Below the pieces are notes generated by a model, which worked only from the letters and a program-made list of their open reading frames with translations, was not told where the DNA came from and searched no databases. 64,000 bases of DNA from an uncultured Ktedonobacterales bacterium (lineage in GTDB: Bacteria > Chloroflexota > Ktedonobacteria > Ktedonobacterales > Ktedonobacteraceae): positions 8,188 to 72,187 of the forward strand of contig CAZZVE010000006.1 in NCBI GenBank assembly GCA_964657325.1. The letters run 5' to 3'. Position numbers and translations under genes: made by a program. Positions 5,321 to 43,135 of this stretch are shown one piece after another (the first letter of the stretch is position 1; every line of letters begins with the position of its first letter).

Positions 5321-5392
5321 TGTAGGGACCGTTGTATCGCGTCCTCGTTCGGCATTGGTAAGCCAGAAGGGCGCGATACGTCGGTCCCTACA
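5321..5392. repeat. imperfect palindromic intergenic element (GTAGGGACCG ... CGGTCCCTAC arms)
   Basis: TGTAGGGACCG at 5321-5331 pairs with CGGTCCCTACA at 5382-5392. Inner arms GTATCGCGTCC / GGGCGCGATAC have 1 mismatch. The same core recurs at 61001/61177. Confidence 0.85.
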
Positions 5393-36925: not shown

Positions 36926-37591
36926 ATGATTAGTAATTTCACGCCACAGGACTTTATACGGCAAGACGAAACCGACGACAGCAATTTCTATGTTGCACCG
37001 CGTATGGTTGTACATATTGATGATGTTGCGATTGCGGCAGTAACAGATGCTATCCGTCGTCATGTTCCTACAAATGCTCACATTCTTGATATTATGAGTA
37101 GTTATCGCTCACATCTACCAGCAGAGGCTTCCTACTCAGAGGTGGTAGGATTGGGAATGAACGAGGCAGAATTGAAGGCAAATTCGCAATTGACACGTTT
37201 TGTTGTTCAGAACCTCAATAAAAATCCACAATTGCCCTTTGAAGACGGTCACTTTGACGCGGTTATCAATACTGTCTCGGTTCAATATCTCAAACGTCCC
37301 GTTGAGGTATTTCGTGAGGTTGCGCGAGTACTCAAGCCAGGAGGCGTTTCACTGGTAAGTTTTTCCGATAGGATGTTTCCTACAAAAGCTGTGCGTATCT
37401 GGTATGAGGGGAACAACGAAAGTCATATAGCACTTGTGCAGAAATATTATGAACTAGCTGGCGGCTTTTCTAAAATCGAGGTCGAACAGCACGTGGACGC
37501 ACAAGCATCATGGTTCCGTAGAGGTCACGATCCACTCTTCATCGTACTTGGCATACGAACGGGCACAGAAGAAGATACTGCACAAAGATAG
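36926..37591 (+). CDS. class I SAM-dependent methyltransferase
   Basis: Methyltransferase-11-type core ILDIMSS...FDAVINTVSVQYL..P...F.E..RVLKPGG. Confidence 0.75.
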   Translation: MISNFTPQDFIRQDETDDSNFYVAPRMVVHIDDVAIAAVTDAIRRHVPTNAHILDIMSSYRSHLPAEASYSEVVGLGMNEAELKANSQLTRFVVQNLNKNPQLPFEDGHFDAVINTVSVQYLKRPVEVFREVARVLKPGGVSLVSFSDRMFPTKAVRIWYEGNNESHIALVQKYYELAGGFSKIEVEQHVDAQASWFRRGHDPLFIVLGIRTGTEEDTAQR

Positions 37592-37594
37592 CTG

Positions 37595-38200
37595 TTACGC
37601 TGGATACTTGCTGCGGAAACGGGAAAAAGCTGCCACAACCTGACTGCGCGTTTCTTCCTGAGAACCACCGTTGTCGATCACTTCGTCTACGAGGGGAAGC
37701 CTGTCGGCAACGGATGCTTGAGCGTGAATACGTGCCCATGCTTCTTGTTCACTAAAACCATTGCGTGCGATGAGTCGCGCAAACTCTTGTTCTTCTGGAC
37801 AGATGATCATCCATTTGCTTTGACAGAGCGCGCCTGAGTTTCCTTCTAATAACTTTACGGCATCAATAATCACGATGCCCGTTGCGCTGACATGAGAGAG
37901 TTCTTGCATCATTGCTGCCCCTACCGCGGGATGCACAATGCGTTCCAAATGGCGCATCGCGTCAGCATCTTGAAACACGAGTGCTCCCAATGCCTTACGA
38001 TCAACGCTGCCATCCGCCGCAATGACAGAAGGGCCGAATGCTTCTGCGACCTTTACCGCGATAGGTTGACCATGTTCATATAAAGCGTGCACGGTTGCAT
38101 CTGCGTCAATGTAACGTTCGGCTCCGAGTTCTAACAACATGTGCCCCACAGAGGTCTTTCCACATGCAATGTTCCCAGTTATTCCTAAAACACGCGGCAT
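37595..38200 (-). CDS. coaE: dephospho-CoA kinase
   Basis: Begins LGITGNIACGKTSV (P-loop). 201 aa with the CoaE layout. Confidence 0.88.
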   Translation of the reverse strand: MPRVLGITGNIACGKTSVGHMLLELGAERYIDADATVHALYEHGQPIAVKVAEAFGPSVIAADGSVDRKALGALVFQDADAMRHLERIVHPAVGAAMMQELSHVSATGIVIIDAVKLLEGNSGALCQSKWMIICPEEQEFARLIARNGFSEQEAWARIHAQASVADRLPLVDEVIDNGGSQEETRSQVVAAFSRFRSKYPA

Positions 38201-38393
38201 TCGATGAGCCTCCTCAATACCAATAAAGCATTCCTCAACAACTATAACACATTTCTCTTTTCGTACATGAGAGTAAACATAGCTTCCGGGGCGATATCCA
38301 AAAAGTACTTATTTGGGCCTGTTTCTCACCACACATTCGTGAAGTAGCGTACAATACTCACACAGTTTATGATCTATGGTAGTTATAGAGGGA

Positions 38394-40199
38394 ATGAGCA
38401 TGGGTAGACGCCTCGGACTTGTCGTGGGTGTCAATTCCTACCAGGACAATACATTTCAGCCGCTTCAGTTCGCTGAAAACGATGCACGCGCGTTTGCTCA
38501 GTGGCTTGTAAACGAGAAGGGTGGAAAATGGGCACCCGCAGATGTGCAACATGTATATAGCATAAATGCCACAAGAGACCTCATTGAGTCTCTTGTACTA
38601 CAACTTTGCCTCTCGATTGCCCAACCTGATGATCTTGTGCTCATTTATATCGCCAGCCATGCCTTTCTCGATGAGAGAAATGGTGACGGTTATCTTGCAC
38701 TGTCGGACACCTTCTATAGAAATCCCAGTACAGGTCTACACCTTTCCTTACTAGCACAGCAAGTGATGACACAAAGTCGTGCAGCTAATATCGTGTTCAT
38801 ACTCGATTCGTTCCAAACGGGTCAAGCATGGGGTACACGGCAAAACTCACCCTACGATGTTCAGCCACTTTTGGGTACCGCACTTCTGCAAGGATTACAG
38901 CAACAACAGGAACGAATTATACTTGGCTCATGTCGTGGTAATGCCTTTAGTGCAGAGGCAGGAGAACGTGGTTTAGGTCTGCTGATGTATCGTATGATAG
39001 TTGGTTTAAGTAGTGCTGCAACCGATCCGATAACAGGAAGCGTTACACTACAAACACTGTATACCTATCTTGCAAATAACTTAGCAATGCAGCAACGCCC
39101 ACAAGTTTTTGGACAAGCTCCCAACCCCATCATGCTAGTGGGGAACGAATATCTACAGCAACAACCAGTACAAACCATGCGTCCAGAGAATACTCCTGTG
39201 TATGCAGCAACTGTACCACAAACGCCCCAAGGTGCGGTAGTACAACAGGGAGCGTATAATGCGACGGCTACTGCCCAGTTAGCACCCTCGTCTCAGCAGA
39301 GACAAAGAACTACATCTGGACAACTTCATTCCTCTGAAATTGAGCAACACCGACAGCAGCAGAGCGCATTCCTTCTCGACTCAGCACTGCAACAGTTTCA
39401 GGCGCAACACCCAGAAGAGGCACTACGCTTCATAGATCAAGCACTGCAAATTACGCCTGGAGAGAGTGCGGGATTGACCCTGAAAGGGCAAATTCTGGGT
39501 ACAATGGGCCGATTTCCAGAGGCACTCATGGCTGTTGATCAGTTACGGCAACAAGAACCAGATAACGCGCTTGCATGGAGTATGGGCGCAGTGCTATTAA
39601 CGAATATGGGACGCCATCAGGAAGCACTCGCCGCGATTGAACGTTCTCTTGAACTTGATGCGAGCAATACGGAGAGTTATGCTATCAAGACAGACATTAT
39701 GTCGAGCATCGCAATTGCACAAAATAAAGATAAGACACTACCTAAAAACGAGTTAATCGCGTCAGAAAAAAGACGTGGTGGACCATTATCTTTTCTACTA
39801 AGTATGGGGCTACAGTTTGTAGGCTTGTTGCTCGGTATCGTGGGTGGACTTCTGCCGATTATTCGTCCAACGCTACCAATAACACTCTCATTGCTTTTAG
39901 AGAGTTTGGGGTTAGCTATCTTATGTGTAAACGCGGCACGAGGTGCTTATCGCTATGGCTTCCTACGTGTTCTCGTGACACTTTTCTTTAGTCTTCTCCC
40001 AGTCGCACTTCTCGGTATTAGTATAGGCTATCGTCCCGCCTATAGGAAAATCATTTTTGAATTGCAAGCCCATCCTGTGTTCTTAGTACCGCTCCTCTTT
40101 CTTGGTCTGTGGCTCGCCGTAGCAGCAGTCGTACCAGATATTCTAGCAATCATCGCGTTTATCAGCGGAATGATCACAGGAGTAAGACGAAGAAGGTAA
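38394..40199 (+). CDS. caspase-fold (peptidase C14-like) / TPR / multi-pass membrane protein, catalytic Cys absent
   Basis: LGLVVGVNSY..L.FAENDA, YIASHAF (His position), ILDSFQTG (Phe where Cys is expected). A Q-rich linker, about 3 TPRs, then 4-5 C-terminal hydrophobic helices. The start may be 38376, 38394 or 38400. Confidence 0.75.
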   Translation: MSMGRRLGLVVGVNSYQDNTFQPLQFAENDARAFAQWLVNEKGGKWAPADVQHVYSINATRDLIESLVLQLCLSIAQPDDLVLIYIASHAFLDERNGDGYLALSDTFYRNPSTGLHLSLLAQQVMTQSRAANIVFILDSFQTGQAWGTRQNSPYDVQPLLGTALLQGLQQQQERIILGSCRGNAFSAEAGERGLGLLMYRMIVGLSSAATDPITGSVTLQTLYTYLANNLAMQQRPQVFGQAPNPIMLVGNEYLQQQPVQTMRPENTPVYAATVPQTPQGAVVQQGAYNATATAQLAPSSQQRQRTTSGQLHSSEIEQHRQQQSAFLLDSALQQFQAQHPEEALRFIDQALQITPGESAGLTLKGQILGTMGRFPEALMAVDQLRQQEPDNALAWSMGAVLLTNMGRHQEALAAIERSLELDASNTESYAIKTDIMSSIAIAQNKDKTLPKNELIASEKRRGGPLSFLLSMGLQFVGLLLGIVGGLLPIIRPTLPITLSLLLESLGLAILCVNAARGAYRYGFLRVLVTLFFSLLPVALLGISIGYRPAYRKIIFELQAHPVFLVPLLFLGLWLAVAAVVPDILAIIAFISGMITGVRRRR

Positions 40200-40208
40200 A
40201 GGAGCTTA

Positions 40209-42158
40209 TTAGGCTCCTACCTCGTCAGCAAGCCGTTCCCATTCAACGAGCAAGTCATCTACGCGTGCTCTGGCTTGTTCGTACTCGGCTGATAGTTGTG
40301 TGAGCTGCTCTCCATCTGCATTCAGGGCTGCTTCTGATAGAGCGTTCTCTACGGTTTTGACATGTGCCTCGGCCTTTTCTATATCGCGCTCAACGTCCTC
40401 GACGGTGCGCGTCTTTGTCTTTGCCGACCTTTTATTACTTGTCTTCACAACTGGCGCGGCAGGTTTTTCGACAATAGGTGTTTTCTTTGCAGCCGGCACA
40501 GGCACATCGAGCAGGATTGGTTGCTTTTTCGTTCGATAGTCGGTGTAGTTCCCCATATACGGAATAAGCACACCATCTTCAATAGCCCAGACCTTTGTTG
40601 CGAGACTATCAATAAAGTAACGGTCATGCGAAACGAACAGTAAAGTACCCTCAAACTCGCTCAACACTTCTTCCAAAAACTGTCGCGATTGTAGGTCAAG
40701 ATGGTTGGTTGGTTCATCCAAGATGAGCAGGTTGGAGCCTTGTAAGGTCAATTTTGCTAATGCGACACGACTTCGTTCACCACCACTTAACGCGCCGATT
40801 GGCTTGAACACATCATCACCAGAAAAAAGGAAACGACCCAGAAAGCTACGTGCACCCTCCTCGCTCAAGACGCTGATCTGACGAATTTCGTCAAGAATGG
40901 TACGCTCGTAGTTAAGGCCAGCATGGGTCTGTGAGTAGTAGCCAACGCGCACATTATGTCCGATAGTTGCATGTCCACTCATAGGAGGTAGCTCACCAAT
41001 GAGCGTGCGTAGGACCGTGGTTTTGCCAGCACCATTAGGACCGATAAAGCCGACACGATCTCCGCGTAACAACTCCAGGTCCGCAACACGCACAAGTGTA
41101 GTAGGTTCACCACTTCTCTGAGGGTCACGTCTTGAGCCTCCACCATAGCCAACGGCGAGTTTGTTGGTCGAAATAACAACGAGACCGCTATCCGTCACTT
41201 GCGTGAACTCGAAGTGCAGTTCGGGAAAGTCCTGTGGTCGTTCTACCCGCTCAAGACGGTCTAGCAATTTCTGTCGCCCTCGCGCCTCTTTACTACGTTG
41301 TCCTGCTTTATAACGGCGAATAAATTCTTCTGTATGGGCAATATGTGCTTGTTGTGCTTCATACTCACGAAGTTGCCGATCCATACGCTCTTCACGCAGG
41401 CTCAGATACTTTGTGTAGTTGCCCGGATATTCCTCTATACGCCCAAAGGCCATTTCAATCGTTCGTGAGACGATTTTATCAAGAAAGTAACGGTCATGTG
41501 CAACGATAACCATTGCACCTTTCCAACTGAGCAGGTAGGTTTCCAGCCATTCAAGTGCGGTAAGGTCAAGATGATTTGTTGGCTCATCCATCAAAAGCAA
41601 ATCGGGTTCTTGTAACAGCAGTTTGCCAAGAGAAGCCCGTGTTTGTTGTCCACCACTGAGACGCATAACAGGAGACGCCTGTTGTTCACGTGTGAAGCCA
41701 AGACCATCAAGCACCTGCTCAACACGATTCTCGTATGTATACCCGCCTGCATGCTCATACTGTGTTTGTAGCTCATCGTAGCGCGCAAGCAATGTATCAT
41801 ATAACGCTTTATTCTCTTGTGTAGTAGTCGATGACATTTCCTGAGTAAGAGTGCTCAACTCCTGTTCCCAGGAGCGCAGTTCAGAGAAGACGGTTAACAA
41901 CTCTTCGCGTAGAGTATTTTGTGGCTGAAAGTCAACATATTGCGTCAAATAACCAACACGAATAGTACGAGCGATGGCAACGGAACCCTCGTCAGGCTCT
42001 TCTCGACGTGCCAGAATATTGAGTAACGTAGATTTTCCTGCTCCATTTGGGCCAACTAACCCGATACGGTCATGTTCATTAATTTGAAATGTGATGCCAG
42101 AAAAGATGCGCTCCGCGCCAAACGACTTCCCCACCTCTGTACAACTAAGAATTGGCAT
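40209..42158 (-). CDS. ABC-F family ATPase (Uup-like, with C-terminal coiled-coil)
   Basis: Two ABC cassettes (GPNGAGKST twice, LSGGQ/LSGGE signatures) with no TM domain. There is an inter-domain linker and a K/E-rich coiled C-terminus. Confidence 0.9.
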   Translation of the reverse strand: MPILSCTEVGKSFGAERIFSGITFQINEHDRIGLVGPNGAGKSTLLNILARREEPDEGSVAIARTIRVGYLTQYVDFQPQNTLREELLTVFSELRSWEQELSTLTQEMSSTTTQENKALYDTLLARYDELQTQYEHAGGYTYENRVEQVLDGLGFTREQQASPVMRLSGGQQTRASLGKLLLQEPDLLLMDEPTNHLDLTALEWLETYLLSWKGAMVIVAHDRYFLDKIVSRTIEMAFGRIEEYPGNYTKYLSLREERMDRQLREYEAQQAHIAHTEEFIRRYKAGQRSKEARGRQKLLDRLERVERPQDFPELHFEFTQVTDSGLVVISTNKLAVGYGGGSRRDPQRSGEPTTLVRVADLELLRGDRVGFIGPNGAGKTTVLRTLIGELPPMSGHATIGHNVRVGYYSQTHAGLNYERTILDEIRQISVLSEEGARSFLGRFLFSGDDVFKPIGALSGGERSRVALAKLTLQGSNLLILDEPTNHLDLQSRQFLEEVLSEFEGTLLFVSHDRYFIDSLATKVWAIEDGVLIPYMGNYTDYRTKKQPILLDVPVPAAKKTPIVEKPAAPVVKTSNKRSAKTKTRTVEDVERDIEKAEAHVKTVENALSEAALNADGEQLTQLSAEYEQARARVDDLLVEWERLADEVGA

Positions 42159-42472: not shown

Positions 42473-43135
42473 GTGGCGAAAGAGCAGTCCCTGGATAATC
42501 TTTGGTTGGCACAGATGCTATTTGATCTTGGTGCAGTACAATTTGGTAATTTTACAGTGAGCGAGTCGGCGGTGAGTTCGCCGATTTTTATCAACCCCAA
42601 GGTCTTAATTAGCAACCCAACCGCATTAAGTGTTGCTGCGAAACTTATGCAACAAGAAATTAATTTGGCGCAGTCGTTGCGTCGTGCACGCGTTCATTCC
42701 TTCAATATCGTCGCGGGAGTCCCAGTAGGGGGTCTTATCCTGGCATCCGCATATTCGCTAGAGACTTCAACGCCGATGATCTATGCGCGTATCCGCCCAG
42801 AAGGAACTGGAAAGCGTGGAATTGAAGGCCGTTTTACGAAAGGTGACACCGCCCTTATCATTGACGATCTCATCACGAGAGGCAGTAGTACGCTAGAAAC
42901 TGCGGCACTCTTGGAAGAAAACGGGCTAAAGGTGAAAGATGTTATCGTCCTCATTGACCGTGAGCATGGAGCTGCAGAGCGTCTACGGCAACATGGATAC
43001 AATCTGATGAGCATTTTGAAATTAGATGTTATGCTCACGCATTATGTATCAAAAGGTCTCATCTCAGAGGATACCTATCGGGCCTGCGCTGAGTACCTAC
43101 GCGCTAAACAAGACGAGAATCATAACAATTTATAG
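42473..43135 (+). CDS. pyrE: orotate phosphoribosyltransferase (second, stand-alone copy)
   Basis: GTG start after AAAGGA. GAVQFGNFT, the PRPP loop ALIIDDLITRGSS, and VLIDRE. Confidence 0.85.
   Translation: MAKEQSLDNLWLAQMLFDLGAVQFGNFTVSESAVSSPIFINPKVLISNPTALSVAAKLMQQEINLAQSLRRARVHSFNIVAGVPVGGLILASAYSLETSTPMIYARIRPEGTGKRGIEGRFTKGDTALIIDDLITRGSSTLETAALLEENGLKVKDVIVLIDREHGAAERLRQHGYNLMSILKLDVMLTHYVSKGLISEDTYRACAEYLRAKQDENHNNL

Follow-up and report, generated by a model that had tools for sequence, protein, structure and literature searches.

Proteins with a caspase fold include the orthocaspase MaOC1 of Microcystis, which is an Arg-specific protease, and the animal pseudo-caspase c-FLIP, which lacks the catalytic Cys and acts by binding. 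Among the prokaryotic members, orthocaspases bound to the membrane, or fused to tetratricopeptide repeats (TPRs), WD40 repeats or FGE-sulfatase domains, are known (PMC5756287). Pseudo-orthocaspases were defined and surveyed in 2019 by Klemencic, Asplund-Samuelsson, Dolinar and Funk (PMC6426788), an example being SyOC of Synechocystis PCC 6803 (PMC7889975). This survey counts three pseudo-orthocaspases among the Chloroflexi, of which two belong to Ktedonobacteria, and the text on its Figure 4A describes an FS-dyad type that is consistently fused to TPRs in Alphaproteobacteria. Moreover, an active EACC1-linked caspase, KrAvs12, has been characterised in Ktedonobacter racemifer (bioRxiv 10.1101/2025.11.14.688446). 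The gene described here lies in a stretch of 64,000 nucleotides (the window: contig CAZZVE010000006.1 of assembly GCA_964657325.1, positions 8,188 to 72,187) from an uncultured bacterium of the Ktedonobacteraceae, whose members are filamentous and live in soil. An earlier note on this DNA had proposed that it encodes a membrane-embedded caspase-like protein without its catalytic Cys. As read from its sequence, the gene product is a pseudo-orthocaspase, with a complete caspase fold and predicted no longer to cut.

A caspase fold without the catalytic cysteine

Residues are numbered, unless stated otherwise, on the 601-aa translation from the ATG at 38394 (P0001). The Pfam model Peptidase_C14 (PF00656) matches residues 5-238 with 27.2 bits, above its cut-off of 21.4 bits (E=3.9e-6). 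The AlphaFold2 (AF2) model, built from a 58-sequence alignment and with a mean pLDDT of 83.7 over its whole length, contains a caspase-like alpha/beta domain at residues 1-250 with pLDDT above 90. When compared by Foldseek with the PDB, the model retrieves the MALT1 paracaspase, GSU0716 (3bij) and caspases 8, 9 and 1 with E-values of about 1e-6 and a probability of 1.00; the target-normalised TM-scores, for targets consisting of the caspase domain only, are 0.62-0.69. A profile of the N-terminal domain gives a marginal, partial match among PDB sequences, to the yeast metacaspase Yca1 (E=0.18, residues 2-88). The N-terminal C14/orthocaspase pattern noticed earlier is therefore borne out both by the Pfam score and by the modelled structure.

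Residues 1-249, used as the query of an exhaustive HMMER search, returned 6397 representative proteins at E<=0.001. The E-values fall into two sharply separated groups, the protein's own family at 1e-43 or below and, at 1e-23 or above and with 25-35% identity, the remaining caspase-domain proteins. The best NCBIfam model for the domain is that of the EACC1-associated caspases (NF047832), with 70.7 bits (E=1.2e-19) against a cut-off of 140 bits. The caspase-like domain is also the best-conserved part of the protein, with a mean column conservation of 0.69 and 29 invariant columns in an alignment of 30 N-terminal sequences. By its structure the protein is a member of the caspase-hemoglobinase fold (MEROPS clan CD); by the residue at its catalytic-Cys position it is predicted not to be an active peptidase.

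The catalytic positions were located by pairwise HMMER alignments of the query to 117 distant caspase-domain representatives. His89, in the motif YIASHAF, stands opposite His in 132 of 145 aligned distant domains, and Phe140, in ILDSFQTG, stands opposite Cys in 118 of 131. Both assignments agree with the earlier reading, as does the observation that the Phe codon TTC is one transversion away from TGC; Phe140 is the same residue as Phe146 in the 607-aa numbering and F138 in the 599-aa protein. The preceding position, 139, corresponds to x, a variable site, in D-x-C. Cys180, in ILGSCRGN, falls opposite a later strand position, occupied by C51/S36/A17 over all aligned domains and by C46/S34/A16 in the active-looking subset. 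Since this column reads C, S or A in active enzymes, it lies outside their catalytic machinery, and Cys180 is ruled out as the catalytic residue. The earlier note had considered that its proposal would fall if an alignment placed this Cys at the catalytic position, and no such alignment was obtained.

The surroundings of the dyad have also changed. At position 90, directly following His89, 108 of 114 active-looking homologues have Gly and 93 of 121 family members, this protein included, have Ala; in caspases this Gly presumably forms the oxyanion hole. Of the 114 active-looking domains, furthermore, 109 carry His, Tyr or Phe at position 141 and 89 carry Ser at position 142. In the family the three sites are A90, Q141 and T142, and the CHSG motif of active relatives reads FQTG. 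Among active homologues, D30, D138 and E188, which we take to be the acidic S1 pocket seen in metacaspase structures, occur in 112/114, 114/114 and 102/108, respectively.

Conservation and distribution of the family

The conservation of these positions was followed in 72 orthologues from species-representative genomes and, separately, in 121 database relatives, all of about 600 aa, the named ones all from Ktedonobacteraceae or Chloroflexota. Position 140 is Phe in 118/121 database relatives and reads F61/Y4/S2/V2/M1/A1/C1 in the 72 orthologues, with Cys confined to one nested lineage; the possibility raised earlier that the orthologues might all carry Cys is thus excluded. Position 89 reads H62/Q8/S1/N1, the ten losses of His being spread over about six separate lineages that include all three Ktedonobacter genomes. 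At position 139 the orthologues show seven residue types (C47/S11/Y5/V4/A2/T2/H1), so that this site is not a conserved substitute nucleophile. On the other hand, D30, D138, E188 and R181 are invariant in all 72 orthologues, W146 is found in 71 and Cys180 in 70. Q141, W146 and R181 are the family's own invariant residues and adjoin the dyad positions in the sequence.

The single orthologue bearing Cys (L025; DATLSW010000286.1, 4001-5782) has regained the His-Gly pair as well (YFAGHGFLD, FDYCQTG). It is nested within a well-supported 24-member clade of Phe-bearers, and its Cys is therefore best read as a reversion and not as the ancestral state; it comes from a single metagenome-assembled genome, and an assembly error would give the same appearance.

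The ratio of non-synonymous to synonymous substitution rates (dN/dS), calculated against the nearest relatives with unsaturated dS, is 0.08-0.14 in the caspase-like, TPR and membrane parts and 0.13-0.23 in the linker. A full-length profile finds the gene as a single copy in 103 of the 111 genomes of the GTDB family Ktedonobacteraceae, and it found none in any of the 57 genomes sampled from three other families of the class. Named hosts, all of genera with cultured members, include K. racemifer, Ktedonosporobacter rubrisoli, Thermosporothrix hazakensis, Tengunoibacter tsumagoiensis and several Dictyobacter species. In about 70 of 78 loci both coaE and ABC-F, on the minus strand, can be recognised as neighbours, and pyrE (plus strand) frequently lies beyond ABC-F. 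Across loci the pseudo-caspase gene diverges faster (42-50% identity) than its neighbours (60-88%). From its near-universal single copy and constant context, it can be concluded that this is a vertically inherited, lineage-specific core gene and not part of a mobile element or a defence island.

The family branches as a separate clade with a long stem, and its sequences indicate that the catalytic Cys was lost long ago and that the gene has been kept as a conserved pseudo-protease. Among database proteins, the live relatives nearest to it are fusions with FGE-sulfatase or EAL domains. The closest of them, P0156 (554 aa, 35% identity), is an FGE-sulfatase fusion with His-Gly and DCCYSG; because it keeps the family's Trp after the motif (GAIW), the Trp must predate the loss of the Cys.

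The genome also encodes other caspase-like proteins. A PF00656 search of it did not list the gene in the window, which a search with the family HMM did recover. Outside the window lies a second dead caspase, a WD40-fused paralogue of 568 aa (L082; G000:C60:12510-14213, minus strand), whose N-terminal domain is 40% identical to that of the pseudo-caspase; it keeps the His (YFAGHAFLD) and has Ser at the Cys position (LLDISHAG). This WD40 type occurs in 34/111 genomes of the family, with Ser or Ala at the catalytic-Cys position in the eight copies with a readable motif, and such a restricted occurrence rules it out as an obligate partner. The only canonical His-Cys caspase-like gene found in the genome (G000:C140:6118-7395, minus strand; YFSGHGY, LLIDSCHSGA) encodes a protein of about 420 aa with a C-terminal extension of unknown family.

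Architecture, topology and gene context

The remainder of the protein consists of a linker, a helical repeat region and a membrane module (Table 1). The linker varies from 40 to 111 aa across orthologues and its sole conserved motif is a weak TATA..Q..P; a conserved basic cleavage site was looked for in the linker and not found. It had been described as Q-rich and of low complexity. The composition is better given as P/A/S/T/Q-rich in a disordered segment. The presence of about three TPRs is confirmed: the Pfam models TPR_14 (32.8 bits, cut-off 23.5), TPR_2 (31.5, cut-off 27), TPR_19 (30.5, cut-off 25) and TPR_1 (28.9, cut-off 27.8) match above their cut-offs between residues 364 and 432, consensus-TPR structures of the PDB match the region with E-values down to 2e-13, and the AF2 helices at 340-421 form three helix pairs, with further helices flanking them.

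After a second disordered stretch in the AF2 model (residues 449-461), four membrane helices are modelled at 464-490, 496-521, 523-545 and, the longest, 561-600, with a short amphipathic helix at 547-559. Of the four to five transmembrane helices predicted before, four are thus retained, with the amphipathic helix in addition, and not five. The caspase fold itself is not embedded in the membrane, as had been stated, being a soluble domain tethered by the C-terminal helices. The membrane module matches no Pfam family even at E<=10. Searched alone against 5.8 billion proteins, it retrieved only five, of 132-197 aa, the one named being a partial Ktedonobacteraceae protein, and on this basis it has no homologues from elsewhere.

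With regard to topology, the chain begins with strand 1 of the fold in the AF2 model and therefore has no N-terminal signal sequence. Averaged over 69 orthologues, the predicted inside segments hold 7.4 Lys and Arg residues and the outside segments 2.6. The absence of a signal peptide and this charge distribution fit a model in which both termini are inside (N-in/C-in), with four passes and with the caspase-like domain and the TPRs in the cytoplasm. In two orthologues, from Ktedonobacter sp. SOSP1-85 (L070) and K. robiniae (L072), the juxtamembrane linker contains a change of reading frame, close to residues 447-452 (roughly 5332-5350 in coordinates of the locus), and the membrane part resumes in another frame, with 97-98% identity to K. 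racemifer. This may be a shared real frameshift splitting the soluble part from the anchor, or an assembly error.

The open reading frame 38376..40199 is the only one on the plus strand over this region. The start codon is probably the ATG at 38400, which would give 599 aa, the ATGs at 38394 and 38376 being less likely, because MGRRLGL is the N-terminus of all orthologues and database homologues and a Shine-Dalgarno-like hexamer lies 8 nt ahead of this ATG (Table 1). The 599-aa product is 100% identical to the collection entry P0002. The neighbours are housekeeping genes, and the pseudo-caspase gene is monocistronic, being divergent from coaE and convergent with the ABC-F gene. At 40197-40211 the stop codon (40197-40199) and the end of the ABC-F gene (40209) are 9 nt apart, and no terminator-like hairpin lies between them; the two transcripts therefore probably overlap. 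Rfam, promoter and terminator scans of 37500-40500 gave no match above chance.

Table 1. Coordinates in the window of the pseudo-caspase gene, its parts and its neighbours.
Feature	Position	Strand	Basis or remark
Methyltransferase gene	36926-37591	+	
coaE	37595-38200	-	divergent from the pseudo-caspase gene
Shine-Dalgarno-like hexamer GAGGGA	38386..38391	+	8 nt upstream of ATG 38400; sequence read
Coding sequence, predicted pseudo-orthocaspase-TPR-membrane protein, 599 aa	38400..40199	+	in-frame alternative ATGs at 38376 and 38394
Caspase-fold (Peptidase_C14-like) domain, residues 3-250	38400..39143	+	PF00656, AF2, Foldseek
His89 codon CAT, YIASHAF, catalytic-His position	38658..38660	+	followed by Ala, not the usual Gly
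Phe140 codon TTC, ILDSFQTG, catalytic-Cys position	38811..38813	+	
Disordered P/A/S/T/Q-rich linker, residues 254-311	39153..39326	+	AF2 pLDDT <50, composition
Helical repeat region, residues 313-447: three TPRs and flanking/capping helices	39330..39734	+	Pfam, PDB matches, seven AF2 helices
Predicted membrane anchor, residues 464-600	39783..40193	+	AF2, hydropathy; ends in RRRR
ABC-F ATPase gene	40209-42158	-	convergent with the pseudo-caspase gene
pyrE	42473-43135	+	

Possible function and comparison with known systems

The reading that we favour, with a probability of roughly two in three, is that the protein acts by binding and not by cutting, as a non-catalytic, membrane-tethered binding or scaffold protein of the cytoplasm. 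The replacement of the catalytic Cys by Phe, and of the Gly after the His by Ala, would prevent cleavage, and the dead domain would still bind a partner, a peptide or a protein, and leave it uncut. This partner would bind in the former substrate groove, as suggested by the retained acidic residues and by the family-specific Q141, W146 and R181 beside the dyad positions. The TPRs may provide a second protein-binding surface, connected to the caspase-like domain by the flexible linker, and the four C-terminal helices would hold the protein at the inner face of the membrane. Such a platform at the membrane could be a scaffold, a receptor or a decoy, and the housekeeping process that it serves would be one peculiar to the Ktedonobacteraceae.

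Several points weigh against this binding role. The predicted inactivity is drawn from the amino acid sequence and would be compatible with a non-canonical nucleophile, and the Cys and His-Gly of the single revertant-like orthologue imply that activity may be recoverable in this scaffold. The binding of Arg or Lys by the acidic residues is an assumption carried over from metacaspase structures. A related EACC1-type caspase of Ktedonobacter is modelled to cut after Asp (bioRxiv 10.1101/2025.11.14.688446). Finally, since the gene is monocistronic and has no operon partner, neither a partner nor a pathway can be read from its context.

The intact D30, D138 and E188, together with a His89 kept in 62/72 orthologues, would suit a protein that is still a protease with a different nucleophile, either the Ser or Cys at position 139 (58/72 orthologues) or Cys180 of SCRGN (70/72), working with His89. 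In trypanosome MCA2 two Cys residues are adjacent, so that a shift of the nucleophile by one residue is conceivable. This is nevertheless very unlikely, given that 14/72 orthologues have A, V, Y, T or H at position 139, a site that varies among A, T, C and S in active homologues, that active enzymes show C, S or A in the column of Cys180, that Gly90 has become Ala, and that His89 is Q, S or N in 10/72 orthologues, including the Ktedonobacter genomes, in which the other invariant residues are unchanged. As a conserved feature, a nucleophile shifted to position 139 is ruled out. As for a strain-specific mutation, a sequencing error or a decaying pseudogene, the single transversion and the nature of the genome (an assembly of 408 contigs, 91% complete) would permit it, but the recurrence of Phe in 118/121 database homologues and 61/72 orthologues, an intact frame with a dN/dS of about 0.1 and the presence of the gene in 103/111 genomes of the family refute it.

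Caspases work as dimers, and in animals a pseudo-caspase regulates a live one by forming a heterodimer with it. By analogy with c-FLIP, the protein might pair with live caspase-like proteases of the same cell or compete for their substrates, restraining or recruiting them at the membrane, the candidate targets being the many NLR/Avs- and EACC1-linked caspases of Ktedonobacteria. The EACC1-associated caspases are its best-scoring curated subfamily, K. racemifer has an experimentally active EACC1-caspase defence system (bioRxiv 10.1101/2025.11.14.688446), and the genome of the window encodes a canonical His-Cys caspase of its own, on contig C140. However, no live caspase or EACC1 gene adjoins the gene in any locus examined, the canonical caspase is too distant for the family HMM (not found at E<0.01), and the closest paralogue is itself dead, WD40-fused and present in just 34/111 genomes; a vertically inherited core gene is, moreover, unlike a defence island. 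Such a regulator is thus unlikely. Quite unlikely, too, is a broader proposal in which the dead domain docks caspase substrates or live caspase-like proteases and forms, together with the TPRs, a platform at the membrane that keeps caspase-driven cell death in check or localises it. If true, this platform would be a bacterial counterpart of c-FLIP, encoded by a core gene of a multicellular, spore-forming family unusually rich in NLR- and caspase-type death systems.

Pseudo-orthocaspases are common, and none has a known molecular function. The present family offers a clean case for study, being single-copy, near-universal in one bacterial family and under strong purifying selection. What was lost can be stated exactly (Cys to Phe, Gly to Ala), and the residues that hardly vary among active relatives have been preserved; the predicted location, at the cytoplasmic face of the membrane, is simple; and Ktedonobacter, Thermosporothrix and Dictyobacter are available as cultured hosts. 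The practical value will be modest until a phenotype or a partner is known.

Like the pseudo-orthocaspases of the 2019 survey (PMC6426788), the family has a prokaryotic p20-type Peptidase_C14 domain whose His-Cys dyad is substituted and which is conserved, not decaying, and presumed inactive; the surveyed proteins are often fused to protein-interaction repeats. Maintenance by selection, which belongs to their definition, is found here in the dN/dS of 0.08-0.14 in the domain and in the occurrence in 103/111 genomes. The dyad is H-F, and the types named in the survey include YS, YA, FS, QC and HA. The two Ktedonobacteria entries located in the supplements are a WD40-fused HA-type protein, A0A352XVV1 (LDIAHTG), which is of the same type as the WD40 paralogue in the present genome, and a KAP P-loop protein, D6TGT0, neither belonging to this family. 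Moreover, a pseudo-orthocaspase that is a core gene of the non-phototrophic Ktedonobacteraceae fits poorly with the link to photosynthesis proposed in the same survey. The alphaproteobacterial FS-dyad proteins, as described in its text, likewise have a dead caspase domain followed by TPRs. In contrast, only the Cys is replaced here (by Phe) and the His is mostly kept, and the protein has no signal peptide, is predicted to be cytoplasmic, carries an orphan four-helix C-terminal anchor and occurs in an unrelated lineage.

The EACC1-associated caspases (NF047832) come from the same bacterial class and form the best-scoring curated subfamily. The pseudo-caspase is not of the EACC1 type either by the curated score, which falls far short of the cut-off, or by an adjoining EACC1 gene, the place of which is taken by coaE and ABC-F in about 70 related loci; it also lacks a catalytic Cys and an NTPase sensor, and its context is that of a core gene and not of a defence island. 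With the cyanobacterial orthocaspases MaOC1-6 of Microcystis (PMC5756287) it shares the plan of an N-terminal caspase p20 domain with an accessory C-terminal part, in those proteins a TPR, WD40, FGE-sulfatase or membrane segment; they have the His-Cys dyad, whereas this family is without the Cys. The likeness to c-FLIP is a functional analogy only: the sequences are related in nothing but the shared fold, death-effector domains are absent, and no sign of pairing with a live caspase is seen here.

The earlier suggestion that the architecture had not been described therefore stands in part. Pseudo-orthocaspases are already known as a class, including TPR-fused ones catalogued in 2019 (PMC6426788), and a family combining an H-F dyad, TPRs predicted to be cytoplasmic and an orphan four-helix membrane anchor was not found described. 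What sets it apart from the known systems is its H-F dyad, its predicted cytoplasmic location, its orphan four-helix anchor and its status as a core gene in a non-phototrophic family.

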